This document shows positions 12,050-29,933 of a DNA stretch of 64,000 bases, in pieces. The stretch spans positions 105,846-169,845 of the forward strand of contig JBAXDL010000002.1 of the NCBI GenBank assembly GCA_037140955.1, given 5' to 3'. The stretch comes from a bacterium (lineage in GTDB: Bacteria; Patescibacteriota; Minisyncoccia; Moranbacterales; GWC2-37-73). Each line of letters starts with the position of its first letter. Position 1 is the stretch's first letter. The notes below the pieces were generated by a model that saw only the letters and a program-made list of their open reading frames with translations, was not told the DNA's origin and did no database searches. A program made the position numbers and the translations under genes.

Positions 12050-12113
12050 ATATTGTTTTTTTGCGGCTTCCGTGTGAACGAAGTGAACGAAAGGCAAGCA
12101 AAAAAATAATATT
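12050..12113 (+). repeat. 65-nt palindromic intergenic repeat, copy 3 (between parA and parB)
   Basis: Same element as 612-676 and 9398-9462. Sits inside the parA-parB intercistronic gap, antisense relative to the operon transcript. Confidence 0.8.
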
Positions 12114-12148
12114 CACGTGCAGATAATAAAACAAATACCAAAGCATCA

Positions 12149-13016: not shown

Positions 13017-13062
13017 AAAAAAAGCATTGACTCTTGAAATACACACTATTTCAAGGAAAAAT

Positions 13063-13144
13063 GCCCAAGTGGTGGAATTGGTATACACGCACGACTCAAA
13101 ATCGTGTGGCGCAAGTCATAAGAGTTCGAGTCTCTTCTTGGGCA
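13063..13144 (+). tRNA. tRNA-Leu (anticodon CAA), class II with long variable arm
   Basis: Acceptor GCCCAAG/CTTGGGC. D-arm with GAATTGGTAT loop. Anticodon stem CACGA/TCGTG with loop CTCAAAA (anticodon CAA). Long variable arm. T-arm AGAG-TTCGAGT-CTCT. Discriminator A. Confidence 0.8.
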
Positions 13145-13153
13145 CCCAATCTT

Positions 13154-13187: not shown

Positions 13188-13228
13188 AAAAGAAAAAGGG
13201 CGCAGTCAATTTTTTGACTGCGCCCTTA
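13188..13228. terminator. bidirectional terminator (serves the minus-strand gamma-CA gene)
   Basis: 13-bp stem AGGGCGCAGTCAA/TTGACTGCGCCCT with a TTTTT loop, flanked by an A-run and a T-run, immediately 3' of the 13242 gene end. Confidence 0.55.
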
Positions 13229-13241
13229 ATGAAATAACAAC

Positions 13242-13847
13242 TCAAATTGTTTCGTGATGCTTACGCCTCTCTTGGTATATCTTAACCAAATGCTTGTTCT
13301 TGTCCACAACTGTTTTGTTGAACCCTTTTTGTTGTTCATTAACCATAGGTAAGCTGTCGGCAATGGATTGACAATCAACTACCATACCTGATCGCACAAA
13401 ACGATTAGAGTCAACTATAACGTTTTCAACAATCGCACCATGTCCAATATAGCAATTTCTGCCAACAATCGAATTATGCACAATCGCATGAAAACCAACA
13501 AATGTCTTTTTACCAATGGCTGTTGGACCATGAATAGTTGCTCGATGAGCAATTGTACAATGAGATCCAATCAACACGGAATACTTGTGACCATGTTCGT
13601 CTTCGACATATTCATTGTGTAGTCCGTGAATAATCACAGAATCCTGAATGTTGGTACCCTTGCAAATCTTAAATGGCGAACCCTCATCAGCCCTAATTGA
13701 AACATGTGGACAGACTATCACGTGATCCTCCAATTCAACCTTGCCGGTTATTCGAGCCGAACGACTAATGTAGCAATTTTCATCGTTATAGCTTGGATTA
13801 CCGAAAAACTCATCATCGTAAAATACTACTCCCTTTTTTGATTGCAT
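13242..13847 (-). CDS. gamma-class carbonic anhydrase (Cam-type left-handed beta-helix) with intact catalytic residues
   Basis: Hexapeptide-repeat protein whose core aligns with M. thermophila Cam. SIRADEG matches Cam R59/D61/E62. NIQDS matches N73/Q75. The three Zn ligands H81 (IIHGLH) and H117/H122 (IAHRATIHGP) are present. SD GGGAGG lies 8 nt upstream. Confidence 0.8.
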   Translation of the reverse strand: MQSKKGVVFYDDEFFGNPSYNDENCYISRSARITGKVELEDHVIVCPHVSIRADEGSPFKICKGTNIQDSVIIHGLHNEYVEDEHGHKYSVLIGSHCTIAHRATIHGPTAIGKKTFVGFHAIVHNSIVGRNCYIGHGAIVENVIVDSNRFVRSGMVVDCQSIADSLPMVNEQQKGFNKTVVDKNKHLVKIYQERRKHHETI

Positions 13848-14037
13848 TTTTACTACCTCCCGGTTTTTGATGAACGTTGGTTTGACTTTCTTTGAAATTT
13901 TTAAGCTACCTTAGTTATTCATGGTTTCATGCACAACTATAAACTTTACTCCTAACATCTATTTTCGTCAATATATTTTCAAGCAACGAAATAAAGGCAT
14001 TATTTTGCCATTTTATAGCCAAAATAAGCCATAATTT

Positions 14038-14078
14038 TACAAAAATAGACCCATCAAAAGATAGGTCTATTTTTCAAA
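14038..14078 (-). terminator. intrinsic terminator after the NuoCD-like gene
   Basis: 9-bp stem AAATAGACC/GGTCTATTT with flanking A- and T-runs, 15 nt downstream of the 14093 stop. Confidence 0.45.
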
Positions 14079-14092: not shown

Positions 14093-15688
14093 CTATAAGT
14101 CAGTTCCCGAATATGAAAGATTTAAGCTTTTGTTGATCAGTGGAAAGTCAGGCACGATGTTTCCTGGTCCCATGATTCCAAACAAAGCCCAATTGCAAAA
14201 TGATGGATCACGCGGAAAGCATCTTTCAATCACACAATTTTTAATTTCCAAAGCACAAAGAACTTCACCTCTCCATGACTCAACTGCGCCAAGAGCAAAA
14301 CCATCTTTGATCTGGAAAGTTGATTTCGTTTCACCCTCTGGAATGTTTTTGACAATTTTTTCAATCAATTCCATTGTTGCATCAAGTTCATTGATGCGCA
14401 TGAGATATCTGGCATGCACATCACCTTTCTGCGCACTAGCAACAACAACTGGAAATTTTTCGTAGCAAGCATAGGCATGATCTCTTCTGGTGTCACGATC
14501 AAGGCCTGAGGCGCGAGCTGCTATTCCAAGTGCGCCCAATGCCTTTGCCGCATCAAGTGGAAGCACACCGGTTGTTTGCAAGCGATCAAGAAAACCATCT
14601 GACTCTAAAGCCAATGTCACTATTTTTTTCATTTCAATCCAAGCCTCATTTCCAATTGTAAAAAGTTTTTCTAACTTCTCAGGTGATAAATCAAATTCAA
14701 CTCCGCCGGGAATTATATATCCCCTCCAAAAACGATTGCCAAAAACTTCATCAGAAACACGCATTAATCTTTCCTTGATGCGAAAACCATTGGCAGCAAT
14801 GAAACTATATCCAGTTCCCATTCCTCCAATGTTGGCCAAGTCATGAATATGCATGGTCAACCTTTCAAGTTCGCAAACAAGCATGCGTAGCATTTGAGCC
14901 CTCTGCGAAACAACTGTTCCAGCAATTTTTTCAGCCGCTTGAACATATGCTAGAGCGTGAGCTGCTGCCATGTCGCCAGAAAGTCTTTCCACAAACGGAA
15001 GAGCATTTTCCACGATCTTCCCTTCAAGTAATTTTTCAACGCCCTTGTGGGTGAAAAATAATTTTCCTTCCAAGGTTAAGATTCTTTCGCCAGCAACATT
15101 GAAACGAAAATGCCCTGGTTCAATTATTCCAGCATGAATAGGGCCCACTGGAATCTCATAGATTCCCTCTCCAGAGACATGATGCATTGGATATTCCACA
15201 TTGGCTTTTTCCATTTTCTTGTTCCAGGCAAAATCTTTTCTGAGTGGAAACTGACCAACTGGCACATTTTCATGTGAAACCAAGCGACGCGGATCAGGAT
15301 GTCCCTCGGCAATGATGCCAAACATATCTTGCATATAGCGCTCATACCAATGTGCGGCCATTATTGTAGCTGTTAGTGCTGGATATTTTGGATTATTTTC
15401 TGGCAAAGCAGCAGAAAGATTCAGCCACTCGCCTGTTTTATCATTTCCAAAAATAACATGCACGCCAAAAGATTCATTTTCTTTTCGATCATCACTGCCG
15501 TACAAAAGCGACAAAAACAAACCATGAGCCTCAACAAGAACAGTTGAAATTCTTGCAAAATCACTGCTTTCAACAGTTGCCACGGTTGTGTCATTTTTAA
15601 TTTCAACAACTTTTATTTCCGGAAAAATTTTAATTATTTCTGATATTTTCATTTGATTATTTTGAGATATAAATAATATTTCTAGCAA
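14093..15688 (-). CDS. NuoC-NuoD fusion-like / group-4 [NiFe]-hydrogenase large-subunit-like protein lacking all Ni-Fe cysteine ligands (Ehr-type large subunit)
   Basis: N-terminal 30 kDa (NuoC/HycE N-term) region. The conserved GPIHAGIIEPGHFRF block. ERLSGDMAAAHALAY sits where hydrogenases have RxCGxCxxxHALA, so both Cys are replaced. The C-terminal DPSFCN does not match DPCxxC. The likely true start is the ATG at 15652 (MKISEII), 4 nt after the upstream stop. Confidence 0.75.
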   Translation of the reverse strand: MLEILFISQNNQMKISEIIKIFPEIKVVEIKNDTTVATVESSDFARISTVLVEAHGLFLSLLYGSDDRKENESFGVHVIFGNDKTGEWLNLSAALPENNPKYPALTATIMAAHWYERYMQDMFGIIAEGHPDPRRLVSHENVPVGQFPLRKDFAWNKKMEKANVEYPMHHVSGEGIYEIPVGPIHAGIIEPGHFRFNVAGERILTLEGKLFFTHKGVEKLLEGKIVENALPFVERLSGDMAAAHALAYVQAAEKIAGTVVSQRAQMLRMLVCELERLTMHIHDLANIGGMGTGYSFIAANGFRIKERLMRVSDEVFGNRFWRGYIIPGGVEFDLSPEKLEKLFTIGNEAWIEMKKIVTLALESDGFLDRLQTTGVLPLDAAKALGALGIAARASGLDRDTRRDHAYACYEKFPVVVASAQKGDVHARYLMRINELDATMELIEKIVKNIPEGETKSTFQIKDGFALGAVESWRGEVLCALEIKNCVIERCFPRDPSFCNWALFGIMGPGNIVPDFPLINKSLNLSYSGTDL

Positions 15689-17132
15689 TCAAATCAATAA
15701 ATTTGACTCCATTTGGAGATGACAAAAAGAAAGTCAAGCAAATGATAATAACCAATTCCAAGGTCATCACTGAATGCGTAATATTCCATTTTTCCCTCTT
15801 TTGGTTTTGCTCATTTTCATTTCCACCAAAAAACATTCCAATGGTTGATCTCAGCATGGCAAAAGAAATCACACTGAGTGCTATCATGATCAAAATAGAA
15901 AGAAATGGATGCAGCAAGAAAGCATTAGCAAAAATCATATATTCACTAACAAACAAAACTGAAGGCGGCAAAGCGATGATAGACAAAATTCCCAGCAAGA
16001 ATAATATTGCAGTAAACGGAGCTCTCTTCAACAATCCTTGAACTTTGGATGTTTGCGTTGTCTGATAGTTTGTCAGAATCTCGCCAGCTCCAAAAAACAA
16101 CATTGATTTTGAAAAAGTGTGTCCAATCATATGCACCACAGCAGCAATAGCACCCACTGGAGAAAGAGCAAGTGCAAAAGTTATAATCCCCATATGCTCA
16201 ACACTAGAATAGGCTAGCATACGCTTGTAGTTGCTCTGCACCAACATCATGAAAGCAGGAATGACAATTGAAATAAAACCAAAAAACAAAAACAAGTGTC
16301 CAGTCCACTCATTGCTGCCAAGAGAAAGATCAGTAATGAACCTGAAACGAATAATTCCATATAGCGCAATGTTCAAAAGAATACCAGAGAAAAGTCCAGA
16401 AATTGGAGATGGTGCATTACTGTGCGCATCAGGAAGCCAAATGTGCATTGGAACCAAACCAAGTTTTGCACCAAAGCCAACAAAAATGAAAACAAAAGCC
16501 CATCTGATGATGTCGATTGAAATCAAATGTGCATTTTGAGCAAGTGCTGTCAGGGTGAAAATGTCACCACCAGTGACACCACCAATTGAGGCGCCATAAC
16601 CAAACAACAAAATTCCCAACAAACCAAGACTGATGCCTGTTGAACAAATAATAATATATTTCCAAGCAGCTTCAGCTGAAGTCTTCTTGCGATACAATCC
16701 AACCAAAAATGTTGATGACAAGGTTGTGCCTTCGAGTGCCATCCAGAGCAAGAGCGAATTGTTTGCAATCACAGTAAGCAGCATACACAAAGCAAAAACA
16801 TGAAACAAAGAAAAATACAATTTCAAGTCTCCAATTGAAATTATTTTTTCCTCATGTTCATGTCCAATATACCTGACACTGACAACAGCAGCACTGATAT
16901 ATAAAAAGGCCACCAATGAAACCATCAGAGCTGAAAAATTGTCCATCAGCCAAACAGAATTTGACCAAGAGCTGCTCATTTGAAAAAGCACAGGGAGCGA
17001 CATGGAAAAAACTGAAAGTCCGCCAACAATAGCAAGGATTGTGGTGCTCAAAAGAATCTGCTTTTTTTTGTTTGAAAAAATTGCAACAGCGGCGGCAGCA
17101 AGAACAGTGATGATTGTGATGATTGGTGTCAT
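15657..17132 (-). CDS. NuoM/NuoN/HyfF/MrpD-family antiporter-like membrane subunit
   Basis: Polytopic membrane protein with the family signature PMHIWLPDAHSNAPSPISGL. Confidence 0.75.
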   Translation of the reverse strand: MTPIITIITVLAAAAVAIFSNKKKQILLSTTILAIVGGLSVFSMSLPVLFQMSSSWSNSVWLMDNFSALMVSLVAFLYISAAVVSVRYIGHEHEEKIISIGDLKLYFSLFHVFALCMLLTVIANNSLLLWMALEGTTLSSTFLVGLYRKKTSAEAAWKYIIICSTGISLGLLGILLFGYGASIGGVTGGDIFTLTALAQNAHLISIDIIRWAFVFIFVGFGAKLGLVPMHIWLPDAHSNAPSPISGLFSGILLNIALYGIIRFRFITDLSLGSNEWTGHLFLFFGFISIVIPAFMMLVQSNYKRMLAYSSVEHMGIITFALALSPVGAIAAVVHMIGHTFSKSMLFFGAGEILTNYQTTQTSKVQGLLKRAPFTAILFLLGILSIIALPPSVLFVSEYMIFANAFLLHPFLSILIMIALSVISFAMLRSTIGMFFGGNENEQNQKREKWNITHSVMTLELVIIICLTFFLSSPNGVKFIDLIARNIIYISK

Positions 17133-17156: not shown

Positions 17157-18755
17157 TTATTCAGTTAAATTACGCAAATCCTCAGTGTCAGAGCTTCCAT
17201 AAAATTCTCTAATTCTTGAACCTAAAATGGACAAAATAAACGCACTAGCAACAATAATAACAAAAACTCCAAGTTCAATCAGCAGTGGCAATGACTTGAC
17301 CGTCACCAAAGTGAAAACAGTCAGACCATTTTCCATGATTAGCAATCCAAGGATTTGTGAGAAGATGTTGCGATGCACAATCATCGTTGCAAGTCCAAGT
17401 CCAATCAAAGCAATTGAGGCATATAGCAAAGTGTCAAATTCTACCATACCAAGAATTGGAGTATGCTTCATAATATAGAAAGTTGCACCCAAAATTAGCA
17501 CCACCACGAAATAACTAGTTGCTGGCCTCAAAAATGATGGTGAGCTGATCAATTCCTTATGTTTTCTTTGTGCATATTTGATCACTATTGGCACAAGGAT
17601 TGTCTTGATCAAAATTGTTACCAAGGCAAACAACCACAAATGCTTCATTTCACTTTTTTCCACCACAAAAGAAAGTCCAAAGGCAATACCAGCAATGCAG
17701 AATGAAGAAAATGCATAGTATCGAAGCATGACTTGAGCCCTAGCTCTACCAAAAATTAAAATCACAAAAAACACTGAAAGTGCAGCAAAAATGGTGTGAT
17801 ATTGAATGTCAACTTTCACAAAAGATGCAAAGAGCGCAATCAGCATGCCAAACATGGCAGTGAAAAATGCAATCGACATAAACTCTTGCATGCGATAAAA
17901 TCTCATCTTCACTACTGTTGATTCAAGTAGTGCGAGCAATCCCATACAAACCAAAACCTTTGCAATTGCAAAGAAAATCGCAAGCACAAGTGCACCAATT
18001 CCAAAACTACTTGCAGCAATAACGGTTCCAGGAAAAATAAAATTAGAAAGCAAAATTGCAAAAATAGTCATTTTCAGAGCACTGGCATATTCCAACATTG
18101 CCAAATATGGACCAGAATATTCCAAGATCATGGCTTCATGCACCATCGTCAGCTCAAGATGTGTTGCTGGGTTATCCACTGGATATCTAGCATTTTCTGC
18201 CAATGTCACTAAGAAAAAAGCAAACACCGAAAGCAGTAGATATGGATGAGCGAAAACAAGTGGTTGCCCAACAAGTCCATCAATGGCAAATGTTCCACCA
18301 ACGAAACTCATAGCAGCAAAAACCATGATGATTATTGGTTCAACCAAAGCAGCGATCGTCATTTCGCGACTAGAACCCATCCCACCAAAAGCACTGCCTG
18401 GATCAAGACCACCAAGCACCAAGAAAATAGAGCCTATCATCAAAATTCCAGCCACAACCAAAAAATCACTAGCACTTGCCAACTTCCCTCCAACAAACAT
18501 CAATGGCAAAATAAAAGCCAAGGAAAGTGTTGTTGAAAGAACCACATATGGAACAGCGCGGAAAACCCAAGAAGCACTGCTCGAAATCACCATTTGCTTC
18601 TTGAGCAAAGTCGCAAAAGTGTAATATGGCAAAAAAGGAGAAGCGCCCTGCCGCCCTTGCAAACGCGCTTTGCAAAATCGCACCAAGCCGCTGGCAAAAG
18701 GTGCTATCAATAACACGAAAATTCCTTGTAATAATGTTGCTAGAATTGGATTCAT
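17157..18755 (-). CDS. NuoH/HycD-like membrane subunit fused to a C-terminal NuoK/HyfE/MrpC-like segment
   Basis: N-terminal KARLQGRQG...LLKK matches the NuoH/HycD R-x-Q-x-R-x-GP motif. The C-terminal part has a NuoK-like TM helix with a buried Glu (ILGLLIMENGLTVF). At 532 aa it is much longer than NuoH alone. Confidence 0.65.
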   Translation of the reverse strand: MNPILATLLQGIFVLLIAPFASGLVRFCKARLQGRQGASPFLPYYTFATLLKKQMVISSSASWVFRAVPYVVLSTTLSLAFILPLMFVGGKLASASDFLVVAGILMIGSIFLVLGGLDPGSAFGGMGSSREMTIAALVEPIIIMVFAAMSFVGGTFAIDGLVGQPLVFAHPYLLLSVFAFFLVTLAENARYPVDNPATHLELTMVHEAMILEYSGPYLAMLEYASALKMTIFAILLSNFIFPGTVIAASSFGIGALVLAIFFAIAKVLVCMGLLALLESTVVKMRFYRMQEFMSIAFFTAMFGMLIALFASFVKVDIQYHTIFAALSVFFVILIFGRARAQVMLRYYAFSSFCIAGIAFGLSFVVEKSEMKHLWLFALVTILIKTILVPIVIKYAQRKHKELISSPSFLRPATSYFVVVLILGATFYIMKHTPILGMVEFDTLLYASIALIGLGLATMIVHRNIFSQILGLLIMENGLTVFTLVTVKSLPLLIELGVFVIIVASAFILSILGSRIREFYGSSDTEDLRNLTE

Positions 18756-18946: not shown

Positions 18947-20950
18947 CTATAAAACAACAAGCAATGTCACTATCAATGTTCCGAGCACAAACAATAGATA
19001 ATATTGAATGCGACCACCTTGAATCATTTTCATCCTTTCGGCAACAAAATTCAATATACCAGCAATTGGTTCATAGATCTTATCCTTCCAAATAGAACTA
19101 AATGACAAAGTTAACACATATTTTCGAACCCAGGGATTTGTCTCAACAACTGGTATTGATGACAAAACCTTGTCACGACCTAGCAATTGCAAAAAGAAAA
19201 AACGAATTGGTCCAGAAAAAGCAGTTCCAGAATATTGCATGGTTGCGTCTATCGCTTGACCACAATCCCAAGTCTTATAAATTCTTTGATCATCTTTTTT
19301 AACAACAAATTTATACAAAGCATAAACGCCAAGCAAAAATACAGCTGGCAATAAAAATACCAAAACAGAAGAAAGGTTGCTATTTACTAGCGAAGATGAA
19401 ACTGAAGGAGCAGTCGCAAAAAGTTCGCTGCGCACGCTGAGCCATTTGATTATTGTTTTGGCAAAAATTCCCAAAACAATCACACCCAATCCAAGTGTCA
19501 TAATTGGCGCACTCAACATGTAGTCTGTTTTCTCAGCTCTTCTTTCAACATGCTTTGACTTTGAAAGACCAAGCATTGAGATACCAAAAATTTTGATCAT
19601 AGCAAACACAGCCAACCCACTAACCAATCCGATCGTTGCAATGCTCAGCACAAGCACGATCATGGTTGTTGAATCCAAAAGAGAATTATGTAAAACATTG
19701 ATCACATTTTGAACCAATCCCCATTCCCCATAAAATGTTCCAAATGGAGGAAGTGGCAATGAAGACAGAATTACAAGCAAAAATGCAAAAGAAAAAATTG
19801 GCATGATGTTGGCCAAACCTCCCATGACCTCAATTCTTTTGGAATGAAAACGATTGATCAGCACACCACTGCTCAAGAACAAGCCAGTCTTGAACAAGGC
19901 ATGATTGATGGCATGAAAAATCGCAAACACCACAAAAGCATTTGAAATCAAGACAACACTGTCCGCGCGACTTTGACTCAAAATATAAATCGCGATTCCA
20001 AGAATAGTAAAAATGATTCCCATGTTTTCAATACTACTATAGGCAAAAGCTCTTTTCACATCTCTTTCAATGACAGCATACAAAACACCCACCACCGCTG
20101 AAAGCAAACCAAGAATGATCACAACCAATCCCGCCCAAGCTGGCAAATTTGTCAAAGAAAAAACTATTTTAATAAAACCAAACACCGCAACTTTTAGCAT
20201 CAGTCCGCTCATCAAAGCTGAAATGTTGCTTGGTGCTTGAGGATGAGCCTCCGGAAGCCAAACATGAAATGGCACAAGTCCAGCCTTTGAACCAAAGCCA
20301 AACAAAAACAACACAAAAACCAAGCCACTTAGCATTGGAGAAAGATTTGAACTAGCCACCGCAATGCCAGAAAAATCAGAAAATATTGACCCCCAACCAA
20401 GAATCAGAAAACCACCCAAGATTGCACTTGCGCCAAGATGGGTCATAATGAAATACAAAAAAGCAGCCCGAATTGATTCTGGCGACTTGTCGATCATAAC
20501 CAAGAAAAAAGAAGCAATCGACATCACCTCCCAAAAAAACAAAAATCCAAAAGCATTATTTGAAAACAAAACTCCTTGCATACCAAGCACAAAAAAAGCG
20601 GTCAGAAATTGCACAACGGAAGGATTGTATGATTCTTCATACAATTCCAAATATCTGGTTGCATAGACACCAACCAAACAGGAAACACCAGCAATAAGCG
20701 TGAAAAATATTCCAGACAAGAGATTGATCGAAGGAGCAAAATTGAAAAGCCAACTCCAAGAACCAAGCAAAATGCTTTTTGTGGAAAAATTAAACAAATA
20801 TAGCATTCCAAAAATAAAACCAACCAAATTTGTGAGCACAAAAAGTTGAGCTGATTTTCTCCATTGACCACCAATAATAGCCAAGCCACCAGCAAAAATA
20901 AGACCCAAGAAATAAATAAAAATACCGTATGCAATAAAATCTATGGTCAT
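18947..20950 (-). CDS. NuoL/HyfB/MrpA-family antiporter-like membrane subunit (667 aa)
   Basis: Polytopic membrane protein. PFHVWLPEAHPQAPSNISALMSG signature. Size matches HyfB/NuoL. Confidence 0.75.
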   Translation of the reverse strand: MTIDFIAYGIFIYFLGLIFAGGLAIIGGQWRKSAQLFVLTNLVGFIFGMLYLFNFSTKSILLGSWSWLFNFAPSINLLSGIFFTLIAGVSCLVGVYATRYLELYEESYNPSVVQFLTAFFVLGMQGVLFSNNAFGFLFFWEVMSIASFFLVMIDKSPESIRAAFLYFIMTHLGASAILGGFLILGWGSIFSDFSGIAVASSNLSPMLSGLVFVLFLFGFGSKAGLVPFHVWLPEAHPQAPSNISALMSGLMLKVAVFGFIKIVFSLTNLPAWAGLVVIILGLLSAVVGVLYAVIERDVKRAFAYSSIENMGIIFTILGIAIYILSQSRADSVVLISNAFVVFAIFHAINHALFKTGLFLSSGVLINRFHSKRIEVMGGLANIMPIFSFAFLLVILSSLPLPPFGTFYGEWGLVQNVINVLHNSLLDSTTMIVLVLSIATIGLVSGLAVFAMIKIFGISMLGLSKSKHVERRAEKTDYMLSAPIMTLGLGVIVLGIFAKTIIKWLSVRSELFATAPSVSSSLVNSNLSSVLVFLLPAVFLLGVYALYKFVVKKDDQRIYKTWDCGQAIDATMQYSGTAFSGPIRFFFLQLLGRDKVLSSIPVVETNPWVRKYVLTLSFSSIWKDKIYEPIAGILNFVAERMKMIQGGRIQYYLLFVLGTLIVTLLVVL

Positions 20951-20959: not shown

Positions 20960-21499
20960 TTAAGAATTTTTCTGATTAATAGCATTTAAAACACCTTTTA
21001 ATATTGCAGTTGGAGAAGGTGGATCGCCAGCAATGCAAATATCAACAGGAATGACTTTGTCCAAACCACCAACCACAGCATAGGAATCCTTCCAAATGCC
21101 GCCATCAATAGCACCATCGCCAAGAGCGACCACGATACAGGGACTTGGAGCGGCTTCATAGGTTGTTTTCACGGCGTTTTCCAGGTTTCTGGTTATTGGT
21201 CCTGACACAAACAGCATGTCAGCATGCCTCGGAGACGCCACAAAAGAAAGACCAAAACGGTCAATGTCATAATATGCGTTGTTCAGAGCTGTAAATTCAA
21301 TTTCTTCTCCGTTAGTAGATCCTCCATCCACAGCCCGGATGCGCAAAGATCTGCCTCCATAGAGCCTTTTTATGTTTTCTTTAAGTTCTTTGCCAACAGC
21401 TTCAAATTCAGCATCAGTGGCATCAGGGCGTAAAGTTTTTTCATCAATTGTAACCTTTGGACCAAATAATAAGACCTTGAGTAATTGGAAAAATTTCAT
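20960..21499 (-). CDS. NuoB/HycG-like small subunit lacking all four [4Fe-4S] cysteine ligands (Ehr-type small subunit)
   Basis: Aligns with NuoB (DRFGLSFVASPRHADMLFVSGPIT; VIPVDICIAGDPPSP). CCxxE is replaced by GG/ST. GSCAxxGG is replaced by GDGAIDGG. GCPP is replaced by GDPP. Confidence 0.75.
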   Translation of the reverse strand: MKFFQLLKVLLFGPKVTIDEKTLRPDATDAEFEAVGKELKENIKRLYGGRSLRIRAVDGGSTNGEEIEFTALNNAYYDIDRFGLSFVASPRHADMLFVSGPITRNLENAVKTTYEAAPSPCIVVALGDGAIDGGIWKDSYAVVGGLDKVIPVDICIAGDPPSPTAILKGVLNAINQKNS

Positions 21500-21577: not shown

Positions 21578-22018
21578 CTAATCGATCGTCACACCATGTC
21601 TGCTGTGGTGCTTTTTGGCAACACGAATACGCGCTGTTTCTTTTTCAATTGCAGCGGCAACTTTTGCATATTCCAGCTCATTCATTGAGATTTTTTGCTT
21701 GCTAATTTCTTGAGCGCGGTCCCTTGCCTGCTGGGCACGCTTCACATCAATTTCAACTGCAGCTTCAGCTGTGTCAGCAAGTACAACCAAAACATTGTCA
21801 TTAAACTCAATAAAACCACCAGAAACGACCAATAATTTTTCCTTGCCACCAACTTTAAACATAATCTCACCAGCCTTGAGGCCAGCAATATATGAACAAT
21901 GATCGGGCATGATGGTCACTTCCCCATCAGCAACAGGCAAAGTTATTTGCTCTACCTCCTTTTCAAGCACGGTGCGTTCAGGAGTAACAATCTTAAAATT
22001 AATTTTACTTGTAGACAT
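21578..22018 (-). CDS. atpC: F1 ATP synthase epsilon subunit
   Basis: MSTSKINFKIVTPERTVLEKEV... is a typical epsilon N-terminal beta-sandwich plus C-terminal helices. The ATG is at 22018. The upstream ORF-track extension is unsupported. Confidence 0.85.
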   Translation of the reverse strand: MSTSKINFKIVTPERTVLEKEVEQITLPVADGEVTIMPDHCSYIAGLKAGEIMFKVGGKEKLLVVSGGFIEFNDNVLVVLADTAEAAVEIDVKRAQQARDRAQEISKQKISMNELEYAKVAAAIEKETARIRVAKKHHSRHGVTID

Positions 22019-22184
22019 AATATTAATTTCAAATCCAAATATCAAAATCTCAATTTCAAATAAATGACTCAAATCCAAATATCAAAATTTAGATTTTAAA
22101 ATTTTGGATTTTATTTGAAATTTTGATTTTAGATTTTAGATTTAAAAACAAATTTAAACAATAAATACTTTTAGGAATGTTAAT

Positions 22185-23567
<1,383 letters not shown>

Positions 23568-23608
23568 TTAATTAGAATAATTATACCTATTTAAAAGATT
23601 CTTATAAT

Positions 23609-23722
23609 TTCGAATTTCCAATTTCTAATTTTGAATCAATACTTAATTTCCAAATTTCTAATGTTTCAAACATTCACTCATTCGGACTTGATTCAAAATT
23701 CAAAATTCGAAATTCAAAATTG
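23609..23722. repeat. AT-rich atp-spacer repeat family, copy 1 (TCGAATTTCCAATTTCTAATTTTGAATCAAT...AATTTCTAATG...TTCAAAATTCGAAATTCAAAATT)
   Basis: Shares long near-identical stretches with 27838-27976 and 29971-30084. Confidence 0.6.
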
Positions 23723-23786
23723 TCTTCAAACTTCCCATCTGTCTACACCTTTCTTGAACCATAAACAGAATCAGAACTTCAAACTA

Positions 23787-23815
23787 TTGACAAAATGATG
23801 ATTTAGGTGTATTAT
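23787..23815 (+). promoter_or_regulatory. near-consensus sigma-70 promoter TTGACA-N17-TATTAT
   Basis: -35 at 23787-23792, -10 at 23810-23815. Drives the small plus-strand ORF at 23875. Confidence 0.5.
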
Positions 23816-23874
23816 ATATGGTTGATGATTCATTGAATCATTACAACAAAATTCTAACACAAAAGGAGTTAGAC

Positions 23875-24045
23875 ATGGAAAAGTTGAAAATTTTTGAAGG
23901 AAAGATCTCCAACCTAGAAACAGATGTCAACACCTGGTTATCTGAAAATCCAGATATCAAGATAATTGAAAGGAAATTTTCCACAGAAGTTGATCAGTCA
24001 TTCACAAGCAGGTTTGTATATGTAGCAATATTTTATACAAACTAA
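23875..24045 (+). CDS. small hypothetical protein (56 aa), antisense-oriented inside the atp operon
   Basis: ATG at 23875 preceded by AAGGAG at 6-nt spacing. The ORF-track start at 23818 overlaps the promoter -10 and is less likely. No recognisable family. Confidence 0.5.
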   Translation: MEKLKIFEGKISNLETDVNTWLSENPDIKIIERKFSTEVDQSFTSRFVYVAIFYTN

Positions 24046-24061
24046 TCAAAGAGTTATCCAG

Positions 24062-24102
24062 CCACCCTTTCGCAAGATTCTTTGCGATGGGTGGTTTTTT
24101 TT
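24062..24102 (+). terminator. intrinsic terminator
   Basis: Stem CCACCC..TTTCGCAA / TTGCGA..GGGTGG followed by T8. Confidence 0.6.
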
Positions 24103-24133
24103 ATGCGCCTATTTTTTCAAAGATACTATCAGA

Positions 24134-24173
24134 GTTCAATCCTGGATTCCTGATCAAGTCAGGAATGACAAGG
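24134..24173 (+). repeat. hairpin repeat family copy A (GTTCAATCCTGGATTCC-[CTGATCAAGTCAG]-GGAATGACAAGG)
   Basis: Conserved flanks shared with 27387-27425 and, in reverse complement, 27305-27340. The inner stem differs but stays self-complementary. Confidence 0.7.
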
Positions 24174-24195
24174 TTTTGAATTCTGAATTATATTT

Positions 24196-24224
24196 TTGAC
24201 TTTATTATTGTTCACTGATATATT
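24196..24224 (+). promoter_or_regulatory. sigma-70-like promoter TTGACT-N17-TATATT
   Basis: -35 at 24196-24201, -10 at 24219-24224. About 155-nt leader before the ORF at 24386. Confidence 0.45.
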
Positions 24225-24385
24225 TCATTTACGATTTTAAATTCGATAAGGAGGTTTTTTGTTTGAAACATTTTTGTTCTTTTTTTTGAAACACTGTCCA
24301 CCATTTTGCAACCTCATCACAATCGATTGAATTTGTATGACATTGTTCATGCAAAATAAAATCAAAAGACAAAGGAGAAACAAAA

Positions 24386-24559
24386 ATGAGAAAACTGTTT
24401 TTTGCAATCATTGCCATCATCATTTCAATCACCCCAGCCATTGCACATGAAATTGGCATGCAGCACGACCATCATGACAATTGGGAAACAGTCTCTGTTT
24501 TTGCCATTATTGCCTTGATAATTCTCGGCAGAGTAATTTACAAAAAAATGGAAAAATAA
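24386..24559 (+). CDS. small His-rich membrane/secreted protein (57 aa), not in the ORF track
   Basis: ATG at 24386 with AAGGAG 8 nt upstream. Sequence MRKLFFAIIAIIISITPAIA-HEIGMQHDHHDNWE-TVSVFAIIALIILGRVIYKKMEK (signal/TM, His-rich stretch, C-terminal TM). Followed by a strong terminator. Confidence 0.5.
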   Translation: MRKLFFAIIAIIISITPAIAHEIGMQHDHHDNWETVSVFAIIALIILGRVIYKKMEK

Positions 24560-24586
24560 AATACAATTCCAAACATCTCTACTATT

Positions 24587-24622
24587 GCGCCCACACAAAT
24601 CATTGTGTTGGGCGCGTTTTTT
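24587..24622 (+). terminator. intrinsic terminator
   Basis: GC-rich stem GCGCCCACACAA/TTGTGTTGGGCGC followed by GTTTTTT. Confidence 0.65.
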
Positions 24623-24659
24623 AATTTTCAAAAGTACTTATTTTCTACGAATTACAAAT

Positions 24660-25619
24660 TTATTCCAATGCTGCTCGTCCTGCAGAAATCTCAGCAATTT
24701 CCTGGGTAATCTTTCCTTGTCTGATCTGATTGTATGCCAAGGTCAAATCGTCGCTCATTTCTTTTGCCGCATCAGTTGCATTTCTCATGGCCATCATGCG
24801 AGCTGATTGCTCAGATGCTTGCGATTCAAGCACGCCATGGAAAAGCTGCATCTCAATCAAACGTGGAATAATAAATTCCAAAACCTCACTTGCACTTGGC
24901 TCAATCTTGTATTCAACTACTGGCTCCTCTAATCCATATTCTTTGGCAATAACATCCATTTCAGCAATTTGTTTTTCAATATCAATCTTGGAAATTGGCA
25001 ACACTTGGCGAATGCGAGTTTGCTGATTTACTGCTGAAATATAATCAGTATAAATCATCACAACTTTGTCATATTTTTTTGCCAAATAATCATCCATCAC
25101 AATTTTCGAAAGAGGTTTGATGTCGACAACTGTTGCAAACTTTCCACCATCTGGAAAAGCAGCAATAATTTCTTTTTGCATTTTCCTGACAATATTTCCA
25201 CCCTTTTTTCCAACCACAATAAAATCAACTTTCAAGTCTTCATTCTTAATCTTAGACTCAATTTTCTTTTTTCCAATTCTGTTTATTTTCAATTTTTCAG
25301 GATGCAAGATTTCTTCCTTTATTTTCTTGGCAACTTGCGTATTGAATGATCCACAAAGACCACGATTGGAAGTTATTGCAATCATCAAAACACTTTTCAC
25401 TTCACGCACCTCCAAAAATCCATAATTTTCTGATGACTCAAATGCCCTAGCAAGATTGGTTAGCACACTCCAAGCAGCATGAGCATAGGCCCTAATCCCA
25501 AGCACGCTTGCAACAGCTCTGCGCATTTTGGCAGCAGAAACCATCTCCATTGCTTTGGTGATTTTTCTTGTGCTATTTATCGACCGAATGCGTCGTTTTA
25601 TATCTAGTGAACTGGCCAT
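24660..25619 (-). CDS. atpG: F1 ATP synthase gamma subunit
   Basis: Full-length gamma similarity (MASSLDIKRRIRSINSTRKITKAMEMVSAAKMRRA...). Confidence 0.9.
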   Translation of the reverse strand: MASSLDIKRRIRSINSTRKITKAMEMVSAAKMRRAVASVLGIRAYAHAAWSVLTNLARAFESSENYGFLEVREVKSVLMIAITSNRGLCGSFNTQVAKKIKEEILHPEKLKINRIGKKKIESKIKNEDLKVDFIVVGKKGGNIVRKMQKEIIAAFPDGGKFATVVDIKPLSKIVMDDYLAKKYDKVVMIYTDYISAVNQQTRIRQVLPISKIDIEKQIAEMDVIAKEYGLEEPVVEYKIEPSASEVLEFIIPRLIEMQLFHGVLESQASEQSARMMAMRNATDAAKEMSDDLTLAYNQIRQGKITQEIAEISAGRAALE

Positions 25620-25656
25620 AGTATTTAATATTTTCTGAATTTATCCAGATTCCAAT

Positions 25657-25691
25657 TTTAAATTTTAAGTTTTAAATTTTAAATTAATTTT
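25657..25691. repeat. 36-nt AT-rich spacer repeat (TTTTAAATTTTAAGTTTTAAATTTTAAATTAATTTT), copy 1
   Basis: Exact repeat of 28485-28520. Both lie in atp intercistronic spacers. Confidence 0.7.
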
Positions 25692-25748
25692 CAAATATTT
25701 AAATATTTTTTATATTCTATTTAAAATTTTTAATTTAAAATTCTGCGT

Positions 25749-27257
25749 TTACGCGGTCTGATATATTTCTTTAAATTCCTTTATTGCCTTTTCCAATGCT
25801 GCCACAACCTCATCTGACAATTCTTTCTTTTCACCAATAAGTGTGATCAAATCTTTTGCATTTGAATCTAGATATTTGTGAAAATCAGCTTCCCAACTTC
25901 TGATGTTTTCAACTTCCACATCATCAACAAAACCATTGGTAAGAGCATACAAAATTGCAACTTGATGCTCAACAATCATTGGCTCATATTGCCCTTGCTT
26001 CAAAATCTCAACTGACCTTCTTCCTCTTTCGATTTGATTTCTGGTTTTTTCATCAAGATCAGATCCAAATTGCGCAAAAGCTTCCAATTCGCGAAATTGT
26101 GCCAATTCAAGTCTCATTTTTCCAGCCACTTTTTTCATGGCCTTGATTTGAGCAGATCCACCCACACGAGAAACAGAGAGACCAACATTCACAGCAGGAC
26201 GAATACCCTTGTAAAACAAATCTGATTCCAAGAAAATTTGACCATCAGTAATAGAAATAACATTGGTTGGGATGTAAGCTGAAACATCACCCGCCTGTGT
26301 TTCAATAATTGGAAGTGCTGTCATTGAGCCGCCCCCAAAATCAGCGTTTAATTTTGCACTTCTTTCCAAAAGACGAGAATGCAAATAAAAAACATCTCCA
26401 GGATATGCTTCGCGTCCTGGTGGTCGCTTCAAGATCAAGGAAATTTGACGATATGCCCAAGCGTGACGAGAAAGATCATCAAAAACAATTAGCACATCCT
26501 CTCCCTTGTCCATGAAATATTCTCCCAGCGCGCAACCTGAATATGGAGAAATATAGGAAAGAGCTGAAGATTCTGAAGCACCTGCAACCACAATGGTGGT
26601 ATATTCCATGGCTCCACGCTTTTCAAGCTCACCCAAAATTCTGGCAATCTTTGATTCTTTTTGTCCAATTGCAACATAAATGCATTTCATGTTTTGGCCT
26701 TTTTGATTGATGATAGTGTCAATTGCAATCGCTGTTTTTCCAGTTTGACGATCACCAATAATAAGCTCGCGTTGTCCTCGTCCAATTGGAATCATCGCAT
26801 CAATTGCTTTTATGCCAGTTTGCACAGGCTGATGAACTGACTTACGAGTAATCACGCCCGGTGCAATTTTTTCCACTGGATAAAATTTGTCAGCCACAAT
26901 ATCACCCTTTCCATCAACTGGAATTCCCAAAGGGTTGATCACGCGTCCAATCATAGCATCAGAAACTGGAATAGAGAGAACATTGCCGGTTGCCTTCACA
27001 ACATCTCCTTCTTTGATTCCAATATAATTTCCAAGCACAATGACACCAACTCGATCCTCTTCAAGATTAAGTGCTACACCGATTTCTCCATTAGGAAATT
27101 CAACCATTTCTGATGCCATCAAATCTGAAAGTCCTGAAACGCGAGCAACTCCATCGCCAATTTCAATAACGCTGCCAACCTTTTCAGTAGTGGTTTCGGT
27201 TCTGAATCCTTCAATCTGCTTTTTGAGTTGTTCTATTATGTAGTCCTTGTTAGCCAT
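25749..27257 (-). CDS. atpA: F1 ATP synthase alpha subunit
   Basis: Walker A GDRQTGKT. Full-length alpha similarity. Confidence 0.95.
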
Positions 27258-27304
27258 ATTATTGATTCTACTAATTACAAATTATTACAAATTTACAAAT
27301 GTTT

Positions 27305-27340
27305 CGTGTCATTCCGGGCTCGACCCGGAATCCAGGATTA
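27305..27340 (-). repeat. hairpin repeat family copy C (reverse orientation; inner stem GGGCTCGACCC)
   Basis: Reverse complement reads AATCCTGGATTCC-GGGTCGAGCCC-GGAATGACACG. Forms an inverted pair with copy B 36 nt away. Confidence 0.7.
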
Positions 27341-27386
27341 GCACATCTCACCTTTTATTAAAAAAATCTTTATTTTATAGCCTAAG

Positions 27387-27425
27387 TTCAAATCCTGGAT
27401 TCCCGCCTCCGCGGGAATGACAAGG
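27387..27425 (+). repeat. hairpin repeat family copy B (inner stem CGCCTCCGCG)
   Basis: GTTCAAATCCTGGATTCC-CGCCTCCGCG-GGAATGACAAGG. Abuts the atpH stop codon at 27426. Confidence 0.7.
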
Positions 27426-27827
27426 TTATTTTTCTAAAACTTTTTTTAATTTCCTGAGCTGCCCTGCCACACTTCCATCGATCACTTCGTCGCCTACTCT
27501 TATTATTATTCCGCCATGAATTCTTTCATTTATGATACTTGTAATTTTAACTTTTTCAGCCTTATACTTTAATTTGATAAAATTTTCAATTTCTTTGTAT
27601 TTTGCATCTTGTATTTTGTATTTTGTGACTACTTCAGCCAAAACAATTCCATGTGCTGCATTATATAGTTCTGCAAATTTTTCCATAACCCTCTCTGCAT
27701 TCTTGAGTTGCCCATCATTTTTGAGCTGCTCGGCGAATTTCTTCACAATCACCAAAACTTCCTGCTCAGATTTTCCATCTGTCAGATCAAAAAGTGTTTG
27801 AGAATATTGTTTGATACTAACTTTCAT
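27426..27827 (-). CDS. atpH: F1 ATP synthase delta subunit (short form)
   Basis: Position between atpF and atpA. C-terminal IDGSVAGQLRKL is typical of delta/OSCP. Confidence 0.75.
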   Translation of the reverse strand: MKVSIKQYSQTLFDLTDGKSEQEVLVIVKKFAEQLKNDGQLKNAERVMEKFAELYNAAHGIVLAEVVTKYKIQDAKYKEIENFIKLKYKAEKVKITSIINERIHGGIIIRVGDEVIDGSVAGQLRKLKKVLEK

Positions 27828-27837
27828 AAGTTTAATT

Positions 27838-27976
27838 TTGAATTTCCAATTTCGAATTTTGAATCAATCATTAATTAATGAATTTCTAATGCTTTAAACG
27901 TTCTGTCATTCTGATTTCATTTGAAATTTTTGCTCCAAGCTTATCCTTTGGGGACAAAATTCAGACTTCGAAATTC
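27838..27976. repeat. AT-rich atp-spacer repeat family, copy 2
   Basis: TTGAATTTCCAATTTCGAATTTTGAATCAATCATTAATTAATGAATTTCTAATGCTTTAAACGTT ... TTCAGACTTCGAAATT. Shares long blocks with 23609-23722 and 29971-30084. Confidence 0.6.
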
Positions 27977-28468
27977 CTATTCATTTATCACTTTTTCTAT
28001 AACACTCTTATCTTTTTCTAAATCTAATTTTGTATCAATAATCTTACTCGTTGCAGCAATGACTAGTTCGGCGATTTGCCCTTTCACTTCCTGCATCATC
28101 TGATTCTTTTCAAGTTCAATTTTCTTGGCAGAATCTGACAGAATTTTTTCAGCTTGATTCTTCGCTTCTCCAATAATTTCTTCTTTATTCTTCACTGCCA
28201 CTGCTTCAGCATTAGCCACAATTTCTTGGGCTGCCTTTCGGGCCTCAATCAAAACAGTCTTTTCCTTTTCTTCAATTTCCAAAAGCTTCTTGCCAGCATT
28301 TTGGGCATTCTCAATGCCCTTTTCAATCTTCTCACTTCTCTCAGTCATCAATTTTAGCATTGGACCATAGGCAAATTTCTTGAGTACAAAAAAAACAATT
28401 GCAAAGTTTACCAATTGCGCAAGAATAAGTTTGATGTCGATGTGAAATGTTTTGATAAGTTCTTCCAT
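27977..28468 (-). CDS. atpF: Fo ATP synthase subunit b
   Basis: Single N-terminal TM helix followed by a long charged helix. Position in the operon. Confidence 0.85.
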   Translation of the reverse strand: MEELIKTFHIDIKLILAQLVNFAIVFFVLKKFAYGPMLKLMTERSEKIEKGIENAQNAGKKLLEIEEKEKTVLIEARKAAQEIVANAEAVAVKNKEEIIGEAKNQAEKILSDSAKKIELEKNQMMQEVKGQIAELVIAATSKIIDTKLDLEKDKSVIEKVINE

Positions 28469-28484
28469 AATTTTAATGCTCCAG

Positions 28485-28520
28485 TTTTAAATTTTAAGTT
28501 TTAAATTTTAAATTAATTTT
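28485..28520. repeat. 36-nt AT-rich spacer repeat, copy 2
   Basis: Identical to 25657-25691. Confidence 0.7.
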
Positions 28521-28641
28521 AAATTATCAAATGTTTAAAATTTAAGCATTTTGATTTGATTTAAAACTTATAATTTAAAATTTAAAATTATTTTTCAAAT
28601 AATCTCATTTTGCCTCACTCCGAAGAATGAGACATTTGAAA

Positions 28642-28902
<261 letters not shown>

Positions 28903-29093
28903 TTAGGGAGAATGGATATTGTCAACAAATTATTAATTAATTTTTAATTCACAATTTTTAATTTTTAAATAATTTCTCAATTCATAAATGATTTCCCTCA
29001 AAGGATAAACTTGAAGCAAAAAACATTTGAAAATTTTGATTTATTTGTAAAAATTAAAAATTTAAAATTAAAAATTCCAATACTTTGCATTGT

Positions 29094-29933
29094 CTAGTGT
29101 TCCTCATTGGTCGTGGCAATTGACATAAATGCCAGCGTCAAAATTGCAAAAACCAAAGCTTGCACAATTCCCACAATCAATTCCAAAAACATAAACGGCA
29201 ATGGCAAAATAAAAGCGGAAATCGCCATCATCGACGCCAGCAAAACCTCTCCAGCAAAAATGTTTCCAAAAAGTCGCAGCGACAGTGATGCAATTTTTGC
29301 AATCTCTCCCACAATCTCAATAAGTCCCACAAAGATCTTAATTGGATTTACCATCAAAATAGTTGGGTCTTTTTTTATTTTCTTGGGAATTGCCAAAATA
29401 GCTTTCAGATTAACAAACTTGTTGAAATGATTCCAGCCGCCAATCATAATGACTCCAAAAATATGCGAAATGACAACTGAAAAAAGTGCAATCGCAAGAG
29501 TGGTGTTAAGATCTGCTGTGGCACCGCGAAGCAGTGGCACAAAAACTTTTCCGTGCTCACCTGTTTCCACAAAACCTATTGTTCCAACTCCAGGAAGAAG
29601 CCCCATCCAATTACTAACCAAAATAAAAAGGAAAAGCGCCAAAACAATTGGCAAAAATTTCAAGGTTTTTTTGCGACCACCGGTAACACTGTCAGCCATC
29701 ACAAGTGCTTGCTCAAGAATTATTTCAAAAATATTTTGCAAAGCTGACATCTTTTTTGTTTTCTTTGCAGCCTTTTTTCCAACCATCACAAAAAAAGTCA
29801 CCAAAATAATCACCGTGATCCAACTCATGATCAAGGAATTGGTGATAGTAAAAGTTCCTAGATGCAAAATAGGCTCAGCGAAAAGAGTGCTTTCATGTTG
29901 TATTTCTGAATTGTTTGTATTTTCAGTAGACAT
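29094..29933 (-). CDS. atpB: Fo ATP synthase subunit a
   Basis: LSLRLFGNIFAGE motif with the essential Arg. Polytopic. Confidence 0.9.
   Translation of the reverse strand: MSTENTNNSEIQHESTLFAEPILHLGTFTITNSLIMSWITVIILVTFFVMVGKKAAKKTKKMSALQNIFEIILEQALVMADSVTGGRKKTLKFLPIVLALFLFILVSNWMGLLPGVGTIGFVETGEHGKVFVPLLRGATADLNTTLAIALFSVVISHIFGVIMIGGWNHFNKFVNLKAILAIPKKIKKDPTILMVNPIKIFVGLIEIVGEIAKIASLSLRLFGNIFAGEVLLASMMAISAFILPLPFMFLELIVGIVQALVFAILTLAFMSIATTNEEH

Follow-up and report, generated by a model that had tools for sequence, protein, structure and literature searches.

The 64-kb stretch of DNA analyzed here, hereafter the window, carries on its minus strand a gene for a gamma-carbonic anhydrase (gCA) of the Cam/CcmM class (13242..13847), which follows a five-gene complex-I-like module of the energy-converting hydrogenase-related (Ehr) type, which in turn follows an F1Fo ATP synthase operon. 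The nearest database matches place the organism in Candidatus Moranbacteria, a group of the candidate phyla radiation (CPR/Patescibacteria). Ehr complexes are widespread, and the lack of a respiratory chain in CPR bacteria raises the question of how these cells use an ATP synthase together with a cofactor-less Ehr complex. The recurrent neighborhoods of carbonic anhydrase (CA), Ehr and ATP synthase (atp) genes described below suggest a testable link between inorganic carbon and protons.

The gCA gene starts with ATG and its open reading frame (ORF) translates to 201 amino acids. A Shine-Dalgarno element read from the sequence (GGGAGG, 13856..13861, minus strand) lies 8 nt before the start codon, and alignment shows it to be kept in relatives as GGAGG or GGGAGG. 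The top match in the PDB is the N-domain of Thermosynechococcus CcmM (3kwc, E=9e-37), aligned without gaps over 168 residues at ~40% identity, and Methanosarcina Cam (1qrg) is matched at E=3.5e-31, whereas plant complex-I gamma-CAs and YrdA/PaaY-type proteins are matched at only 1e-8 to 1e-13. The resemblance to Cam/CcmM exceeds chance by far. Family models are less specific: Pfam returns generic hexapeptide and left-handed beta-helix (LbH) families only, the NCBIfam carb_anhyd and CcmM-domain models both match under their cut-offs, and transferase families reach E ~1e-7 or weaker, far under theirs. In GenBank the window protein is named 'transferase' (MEI7890674.1), and relatives at 88% identity, the level of the nearest one, carry the name 'Carboxysome protein CcmM'. 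Both names are wrong and are corrected by this analysis. Sequence and modeled structure place the protein in the Cam/CcmM subclass of gamma-CAs as a new member. It has neither a signal peptide nor a transmembrane segment and is for this reason presumably cytoplasmic. Horizontal transfer was also considered and has left no signature, as the GC content of the gene (39.3%) equals that of its neighbors (Ehr, 39.1%; window, 38.4%).

Active-site equivalences were read off an HMMER alignment with the Cam chain (3ow5/1qrg), and Cam numbering is used for the reference residues. In the SIRADEG motif, R52, D54 and E55 correspond to Arg59, Asp61 and Glu62; in the NIQDS motif, N66, Q68 and D69 correspond to Asn73, Gln75 and Asp76; and N184 aligns with Asn202. 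The zinc histidines are all present, with H74 equivalent to His81 (IIHGLH) and H101 and H106 equivalent to His117 and His122 (IAHRATIHGP). Across 57 homologues R52, D54, Q68, D69, H101 and N184 are invariant, while E55, N66, H74 and H106 are conserved in at least 90%. The AlphaFold2 model (pLDDT 83.4, pTM 0.83) consists of a beta-helix and a C-terminal helix at residues 171-200; no helix precedes residue 160, and the N-terminus comprises only ~24 residues. Foldseek superposes this model on Cam (1qrl) with a template modeling (TM) score of 0.80-0.82, a root-mean-square deviation (rmsd) of 1.5-1.6 Å and 35-36% identity, and on the active oxidized form of CcmM (3kwc) with a TM score of 0.83 and an rmsd of 1.3 Å. 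Chains of plant complex-I gamma-CA yield TM scores of 0.54-0.59.

Is the enzyme active? Three points weigh against this view. The proton shuttle of Cam, Glu84, is replaced by His77, the sole catalytic difference, and this column varies in relatives (H/Y/L/E/I/S/R/A/K). Some gamma-class homologues are inactive. Moreover, the CcmM domain of T. elongatus is active in its oxidized full-length form and inactive when truncated at the C-terminus (PDB titles 3kwc/3kwd). However, His77 in place of Glu84 leads us to expect a lower turnover rather than inactivity, because CcmM209 also lacks that glutamate; the acidic loop, 11 residues shorter than in Cam, likewise has the length seen in CcmM. Judged by its intact active-site residues and its modeled fold, the protein is very probably a catalytically competent, zinc-dependent gCA of the homotrimer type. 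An earlier note on this DNA had described a Cam-type gCA with the catalytic residues and zinc histidines in place, and had called for a structural comparison with Cam; the alignment and the superposition bear this description out, although the exchange of Glu84 for His77 went unmentioned there.

The upstream module and transcription signals

The five genes of the module lie on the minus strand. The first encodes a NuoB/HycG-like small subunit (20960..21499), the second a HyfB/NuoL-like antiporter subunit of 667 aa (18947..20950) and the third a fusion of NuoH-like and HyfE/NuoK(4L)-like subunits of 532 aa (17157..18755), all three assigned by Pfam/NCBIfam. The fourth is a HyfF/MbhH/NuoM-like antiporter subunit (15657..17132) recognized by alignment to MbhH (6cfw_H, E=1.7e-37), in which the conserved charged residues are kept (LEG, GAKLGLVPMHIWLPDAH, FSKS). 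The fifth is the Ehr large subunit (14093..15652), a NuoC-NuoD/HycE-like fusion of 519 aa with the Pfam domains Complex1_30kDa and Complex1_49kDa, identical to the 519-aa protein P0060. For comparison, a context sample of about 180 loci on metagenomic contigs was gathered, designated here by L numbers; the window clade shares the fusion of NuoH-like and HyfE/NuoK-like subunits with L087/L088, and L170, L174 and L100 have one gene for each.

To assess cofactor content, 93 large subunits and the small subunits that accompany them were collected from every fetched locus and aligned. The four Ni-Fe cysteines of the large subunit are replaced by S237, M240, S525 and G528 (531-aa ORF numbering), at positions where the 20 genuine group-4 hydrogenases in the alignment read CCCC. 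The NuoB-like subunit has T62, E65, G129 and D159 at the positions of the four [4Fe-4S] cysteines. Because the Ni-Fe and Fe-S cysteines are all replaced, the module is an Ehr complex devoid of redox cofactors, and the earlier description of it as redox-dead stands. This assignment agrees with the monophyletic clade of CPR Ehr complexes without these cysteines reported by Jaffe et al. 2020 (PMC7304191). The function of Ehr is acknowledged to be unknown, and redox partners such as formate dehydrogenase have been proposed (PMC7304191, PMC6349859).

The ATP synthase operon (21578..29933, minus strand) lies upstream of the Ehr module, with 78 bp between the two, and runs from atpB (29094-29933) through atpE (28642-28863), atpF (27977-28468), atpH (27426-27827), atpA (25749-27257), atpG (24660-25619) and atpD (22185-23558) to atpC (21578-22078). 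Its c-subunit (..AFAEAVAIY..) looks to be of the H+ type, judged against the Na+ motif.

A spacer of 245 bp separates the Ehr large-subunit gene from the gCA gene. Just past the large-subunit stop codon lies a terminator-like hairpin with a 15-bp, A/U-flanked stem (14041..14074, minus strand), the real counterpart of a hairpin placed earlier at 14038-14078; the 76-nt stretch folds at -28.8 kcal/mol (z = -8.3). This hairpin is not kept in relatives, as L001 and L170 have no significant structure there and L005 has a different, GC-rich element. A consensus scan further identified a putative promoter, TTGACG-17-TAAAGT (13943..13971, minus strand), belonging to a block TATTGAC[AG]-N17-TAAAGTTT[AG]TAGTTGTG that is kept in the window, L001, L005 and L009, and partly in L176, inside spacers that are otherwise divergent (115-368 bp). 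After the gCA stop codon comes an intrinsic-terminator-like hairpin (13196..13227, minus strand; 14 bp, 8 GC, U-tract, z = -6.5) that faces a convergent tRNA-Leu(CAA) gene on the plus strand (13062-13148), and in L174, too, the gCA gene is followed by a U-tract hairpin. As judged from consensus predictions only, the gCA gene of the window is likely transcribed separately from Ehr; promoter and terminator signals of CPR bacteria are uncharacterized, and read-through from Ehr may occur. An Rfam scan of the Ehr-gCA spacer in the window and L005 returned no riboswitch or known RNA, only sub-threshold chance matches.

The GC-rich structured element upstream of the gCA gene in L005 (9674-9790) recurs in L007 (4572-4690). 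Set in an AT-rich genome, it folds into three hairpins (z = -5.1), has no Rfam match, and may represent a mobile element, a repeat or the point of an assembly chimera. Elsewhere in the window, three giant ORFs occupy the minus strand at 889-9090 (2733 aa), 53384-58387 (1667 aa) and 58552-63981 (1809 aa). The first is rich in NxxxN/beta-helix-like repeats and fibronectin-like stretches and presumably encodes a surface protein.

Gene neighborhoods in relatives

In close relatives of the window (L001-L006, L008, L009 and L176; 72-88% gCA identity) the gene order is atp, Ehr, gCA, (DUF4349), ParAB, RelA, TopA. The whole region from atp to TopA is collinear in these loci, and for this reason adjacency within the close clade is weak evidence. 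More is learned from divergent relatives. In the sampled loci the commonest neighbor of the gCA gene is the F-ATP synthase operon and not Ehr. Six divergent lineages place the gCA gene after atpC with 0-3 genes between them, usually including a gene for a beta-CA-like protein. In L179 (52% gCA identity) a 6-nt gap separates atpC from the gCA gene, and in L168/L169 (54%) the gap is 83 nt and GroESL follows. In L012 (54%) and L013 (50%) a Pro_CA_2 protein stands between atpC and gCA, with an ATGA overlap at the L013 junction; these Pro_CA_2 (PF20393) proteins of 148-152 aa (L012:9470-9928, L013:9483-9929) carry the beta-CA motifs SCIDFR...H[EA]DCG, and a search against solved structures gave nothing better than E=0.37 (1g5c). 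In L167 (63%) the order is atpC, a 341-aa CsoSCA-like protein, gCA, DUF4349 and ParAB, the CsoSCA-like protein (8824-9849) passing the cut-off of Pfam CsoSCA_cat (27.6 against 21.5 bits) and matching PDB 2fgy at E=5e-4. Finally, L010/L177 (63-65%) read atpC, a beta-CA-like protein, a second Cam-type gCA, GGDEF, gCA and GroESL. The beta-CA-like family here is of ~300 aa and without a Pfam match (L010:7307-8263, 318 aa, CADGR...HDDCG; L177:4645-5517), and the second gCA (L010:8273-8971, L177:5527-6225), like its paralogue, has the full zinc and catalytic motifs. None of the six lineages has an Ehr gene within 10 kb.

Adjacency of Ehr and gCA also recurs outside the close clade. In L170/L171 (56%) the order is Ehr, gCA, DUF4349 with no atp operon nearby, and the large subunit is 39% identical to that of the window. 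In L174/L175 (47%) the atp genes lie on one strand, and diverging from them are gCA, NuoB, HyfB, NuoH, HyfE, HyfF and a large subunit that is 30% identical. Code 11 breaks the genes of these two loci into pieces, and code 25, in which UGA is a sense codon, leaves them whole; the loci belong to a recoded Gracilibacteria/Absconditabacteria-like lineage. In a quick and rough neighbor-joining tree the Ehr-linked gCAs occupy three separate positions among the atp-linked members of the CPR gCA clade.

Conversely, relatives of the large subunit (Ehr/Hyf) were taken as the starting point, in 80 metagenome loci. Only L122 among them has a Cam/CcmM-type gCA, directly after NuoB; this non-CPR Ehr has no NiFe cysteines and keeps its Fe-S cluster, and its gCA falls outside the CPR clade. 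Ehr-gCA adjacency is thus found in three gene orders, with Ehr before the CA in the window clade and L170, the CA first in L174, and the non-CPR arrangement of L122. Cofactor-less Ehr lies downstream of atpC in the window clade, L087, L088 and L100 and diverges from atp in L174. In L109 (6819-12801) the order is the reverse of that in the window, with Ehr directly upstream of atpB (9173-9988; an alpha-like gene at 11236-12801), and in L170, L101 and L104 Ehr has no atp gene in the available flank.

Genes for non-homologous CA-like proteins occur beside Ehr as well. The two closest CPR modules, L087 and L088, are 65% identical to that of the window. L087 reads atp, Ehr, leucyl-tRNA synthetase (LeuRS), and L088 reads atp, Ehr, a 326-aa tandem Pro_CA_2 protein (11655-12632), ParAB and RelA, such that the tandem protein occupies the slot held by gCA in the window; of its two copies the N-terminal one is degenerate, and the C-terminal one has CxDxR and HxxCG motifs. 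In the non-CPR loci L093/L095, Ehr is followed by a SulP-family transporter and a 391-aa CsoSCA-like protein (L093:14590-15762; L095:14323-15459) that is strongly related to that of L167 (E=1e-104), so that this family, akin to the catalytic domain of the carboxysome shell CA, occurs outside carboxysomes. Ehr accordingly adjoins CAs of three unrelated classes, namely gamma, Pro_CA_2 (L088) and, together with SulP, CsoSCA-like (L093/L095). The beta-CA signature C.D.R(35-95)H..C[GAS] is found in 12 of the 8113 ORFs of all loci, and 10 of these 12 are the Ehr, atp or gCA neighbors described here. Scans of viral contigs for further loci gave one irrelevant match and nothing for Ehr.

In most relatives, including some that lack atp or lack Ehr, the gene after gCA is a membrane-anchored DUF4349-like one (L001:10770-11699; L005:10729-11715; L167:10730-11686; L170:10739-11713). 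In the window this gene is absent after gCA and tRNA-Leu(CAA) is found in its place, and tblastn found no homologues of Pro_CA_2, the CsoSCA-like protein or DUF4349 elsewhere in the 64 kb. In one relative only, a LAGLIDADG homing-endonuclease-like gene (L005/L006:12505-13128) lies between DUF4349 and ParA.

Role of the enzyme

We hypothesize, at what we consider even chances, that a cytoplasmic, active gCA serves the proton- and ion-cycling machinery of the cell, that is, the F-ATPase with or without Ehr. Its role would most likely be functional rather than structural. The host cell in view would be fermentative and without a respiratory chain, and in it the enzyme would interconvert CO2 with HCO3- and H+ rapidly at the cytoplasmic face and so supply or buffer the protons and bicarbonate handled by the F-ATPase and, where present, by Ehr. 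In this view, the 3' end of the F1Fo operon in Parcubacteria-type CPR is a variable slot filled by Ehr, by one or two CA-type genes (gamma Cam-type, small beta-like Pro_CA_2 or CsoSCA-like), or by both. The physiological coupling of gCA to this machinery is proposed from recurrent neighborhoods. The rationale for a functional link rather than chance is that atp, Ehr and CA types pair in several orders with differing flanks, and especially that the CA is replaced by non-homologous CA classes.

Several observations weigh against this hypothesis. The link is facultative, and gCA is found apart from Ehr more often than beside it. A gCA is lacking from most of the 80 Ehr/Hyf loci sampled, several Ehr modules, including L087 and L100, have no CA gene of any kind, and the two closest CPR modules, L087 and L088, both lack gCA. 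In L172/L180 (44-49% gCA identity) neither atp nor Ehr lies near the gCA gene, and in L007, whose gCA (P0001) is an 88%-identical relative and the same protein as in L005, a pilin gene replaces Ehr upstream. Part of the atp-gCA adjacency could be synteny inherited within one CPR class, and the supply of protons and bicarbonate is hard to tell from the work of a generic housekeeping CA by bioinformatics. Recurrence of the Ehr-gCA pair in other genomes, which the earlier note had made a check on its proposal, is seen in L170/L171, L174/L175 and L122 and not in L087, L088 and most of the 80 loci. Likewise, its proposal of CO2/bicarbonate-linked ion translocation with Ehr gains from the recurrent adjacency and from the exchange of non-homologous CAs and loses from the finding that the commonest partner of gCA is the atp operon.

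Two details of these exceptional loci deserve comment. Upstream of gCA in L172 (8354-9913) and L180 (6341-7900) stands a 519-aa protein without a Pfam match that carries a CVDGR...H..CA motif of the kind found at beta-CA zinc sites. Identification of this protein as the Ehr large subunit was rejected, since the equal length is coincidental and L172 is matched in blastp only by the gCA query. Between L005 and L007, synteny breaks at the 5' edge of the GC-rich element, with Ehr upstream in L005 and pilin/NusA upstream in L007; the break in L007 may stem from a rearrangement or from chimeric assembly.

An alternative hypothesis, which we consider unlikely, is that the protein is an ordinary housekeeping CA that supplies bicarbonate or CO2 for carboxylation or buffers pH, and that its position after atp and Ehr is historical synteny. 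In the window gCA appears to be an independent transcription unit, the collinearity of atp-ParAB-RelA-TopA in close relatives makes adjacency within the clade a weak argument, L172/L180 and L007 have gCA in unrelated contexts, and DUF4349, often paired with gCA, has been lost from the window without effect on the gCA gene. However, the adjacency holds at 47-56% gCA identity despite changing flanks (ParAB, GroESL, LeuRS, CitMHS), and some junctions to the upstream gene span a few nucleotides or overlap. Moreover, non-homologous CA-like genes replace or accompany gCA in the same slot, and atp, Ehr and CA recur, rearranged and divergent, in the UGA-recoded lineage. If the link were synteny only, gCA would simply be a new Cam/CcmM-subclass member in an unusual phylum.

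Could the enzyme instead be part of the Ehr complex itself? In a strong form of the earlier note's proposal, and by analogy with DAB and Cup systems, a gCA trimer might dock on the cofactor-less Ehr to form an energy-coupled, vectorial CA, in which ion flow through HyfB/HyfF would drive one-way hydration of CO2, or the reverse reaction would drive ion flow. An Ehr complex without redox cofactors needs a partner reaction that is not redox, its function is acknowledged to be unknown (PMC6349859, PMC7304191), and its antiporter-like subunits keep their charged residues. Furthermore, Ehr and CA adjoin each other in three gene orders with three unrelated CA classes and a SulP (BicA-family) transporter, and CA-like proteins with NuoL/M-like subunits have precedents (10.1101/476713; 10.64898/2026.03.13.711513). 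On the other hand, in six lineages no Ehr gene stands within 10 kb of gCA, and many Ehr modules, including the close L087 and also L100, have no CA gene. In the window, Ehr is set off from gCA by a terminator-like hairpin and by a promoter-like site of gCA's own, and in L174 a hairpin with a U-tract follows gCA. The modeled protein is a compact Cam/CcmM-like monomer with the usual C-terminal helix only and no additional helix for docking at the membrane. We regard such docking as improbable.

A bolder proposal, which we hold to be speculative and doubtful, treats the cofactor-less Ehr not as a redox enzyme but as the ion-translocating half of a CO2/bicarbonate machine in which a CA, attached or cooperating and of a class that changes with the lineage (gamma Cam-type, Pro_CA_2 or CsoSCA-like), would take the place of hydrogenase chemistry. 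Hydration or dehydration of CO2 would be coupled to the movement of H+ or Na+ and, via F1Fo, to ATP. If this were true, the atp-Ehr-CA trio would give CPR bacteria a minimal bioenergetic unit independent of respiration and would provide the first function for Ehr.

That the protein is no active CA, and serves instead as a left-handed beta-helix scaffold without catalysis or resembles acyl/acetyl-transferases, is very unlikely: its GenBank name, its generic Pfam matches and the replaced Glu84 would fit, as would YrdA, some CcmM domains and the Polytomella complex-I gCA, which are without activity (PDB titles; PMC8290278), but the three zinc ligands and the equivalents of Arg59, Asp61, Glu62, Asn73, Gln75, Asp76 and Asn202 are present and conserved in the family, the top matches in sequence and structure are active Cam and oxidized CcmM209 and not transferases, and transferase families score under their cut-offs.

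Comparison with known systems

Cam is a secreted enzyme, and the window protein differs from it in having no signal peptide, a shorter acidic loop and no Glu84, and in a genomic context that is bioenergetic and not one of acetate metabolism. The two are alike in the beta-helix with its C-terminal helix and in the same zinc and catalytic residues (M. thermophila Cam, 1QRG/1QRL/1THJ). Unlike CcmM, the window protein has no RbcS-like (SSUL) repeats and ends at residue 201; the NCBIfam CcmM model NF053794 reaches 168.8 bits where its cut-off asks for 550, and is matched at profile positions 23-195 of 320 only. The activity of CcmM is controlled by a disulfide switch, and the C-terminal tail of the window protein (KIYQERRKHHETI) has no cysteine, so that this switch is absent. 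No ccmK/L/N or RuBisCO gene was found among the annotated genes, which cover ~2/3 of the 64-kb window, several ORFs at 39-64 kb, two of the giant ones among them, lying outside the annotation. A CcmM/carboxysome locus was rejected on these grounds, that is, the missing SSUL repeats and the lack of ccm and RuBisCO among the annotated genes, the neighbors being Ehr, tRNA-Leu and ParAB.

The gamma-CAs of plant and protist complex I share with the window protein the gamma-class fold and, in the window by gene position, an association with a complex-I-type membrane arm, and the earlier note had drawn this analogy. It does not extend to the protein itself. The plant proteins are CamH-like and are matched at E = 1.4e-8 to 2.5e-4 (6x89/7ar7/7a23), compared with 1e-31 to 1e-37 for Cam/CcmM, and the low TM scores given above point the same way. 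The plant trimer is anchored by N-terminal amphipathic coiled-coil helices, one site of the Arabidopsis complex-I gamma-CA can bind zinc, the CA site in plants is not near a proton path, and their complex I is not known to have CA activity (PMC8290278). Sequence, fold and the absence of N-terminal anchor helices rule out a gamma-CA of this type in the window.

A parallel in arrangement is offered by the DAB/MpsAB inorganic-carbon pumps, where, as in the window, non-photosynthetic bacteria encode a CA-type zinc enzyme next to antiporter-like subunits of the complex-I/Mrp type. For DAB, the coupling of CO2 hydration to energy has been proposed and shown (10.1101/476713; 10.64898/2026.03.13.711513). 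However, DAB combines a beta-CA-like DabA with a single NuoL-like DabB, whereas the window combines a gamma-CA with a five-gene Ehr that has two antiporter-like subunits as well as NuoH/K/B/CD-like subunits, and here, unlike in DAB, the CA adjacency is facultative. No DabA (DUF2309) domain was found among the seven window proteins scanned.

CupA/CupB (ChpY/ChpX) on NDH-1MS/MS' resemble the proposal in that CO2 hydration is coupled to NuoL/M-like subunits. CupA is nevertheless of a fold unrelated to gCA, and NDH-1 is driven by redox chemistry, in contrast to the cofactor-less module of the window. In 26 cyanobacterial ccmM loci (among L027-L086), NdhF/NdhD-like genes lie 2-5 kb away on the opposite strand, a neighborhood that we take to be the known ndhF3-ndhD3-cupA/ccm supercluster. 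These loci set a precedent for a Cam-type gCA domain near NuoL/M-like genes.

SulP transporters are paired or fused with CAs, and in the 'transport metabolons' of animal CA and proton-ATPase a CA beside the transporter feeds or drains H+ and HCO3-. The L093/L095 order of Ehr, SulP and CsoSCA-like protein resembles the SulP-CA pairings. The window is unlike these systems, having no SulP among its annotated genes and an ATPase of the bacterial F type.

The module itself resembles known Ehr complexes in its group-4-hydrogenase-like large subunit without metal cysteines and its Mrp-like subunits, and differs from those described in that the small subunit lacks the Fe-S cysteines too. Carbonic anhydrase is not mentioned in PMC7304191 or PMC6349859, ATP synthase is not mentioned in PMC7304191, and no paper in the literature searched joins CcmM with CPR terms. 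Set against DAB and NDH-1/CupA, the arrangement described here differs in all three of its parts, namely the class of the CA, the Ehr partner and the tie to the ATP synthase.

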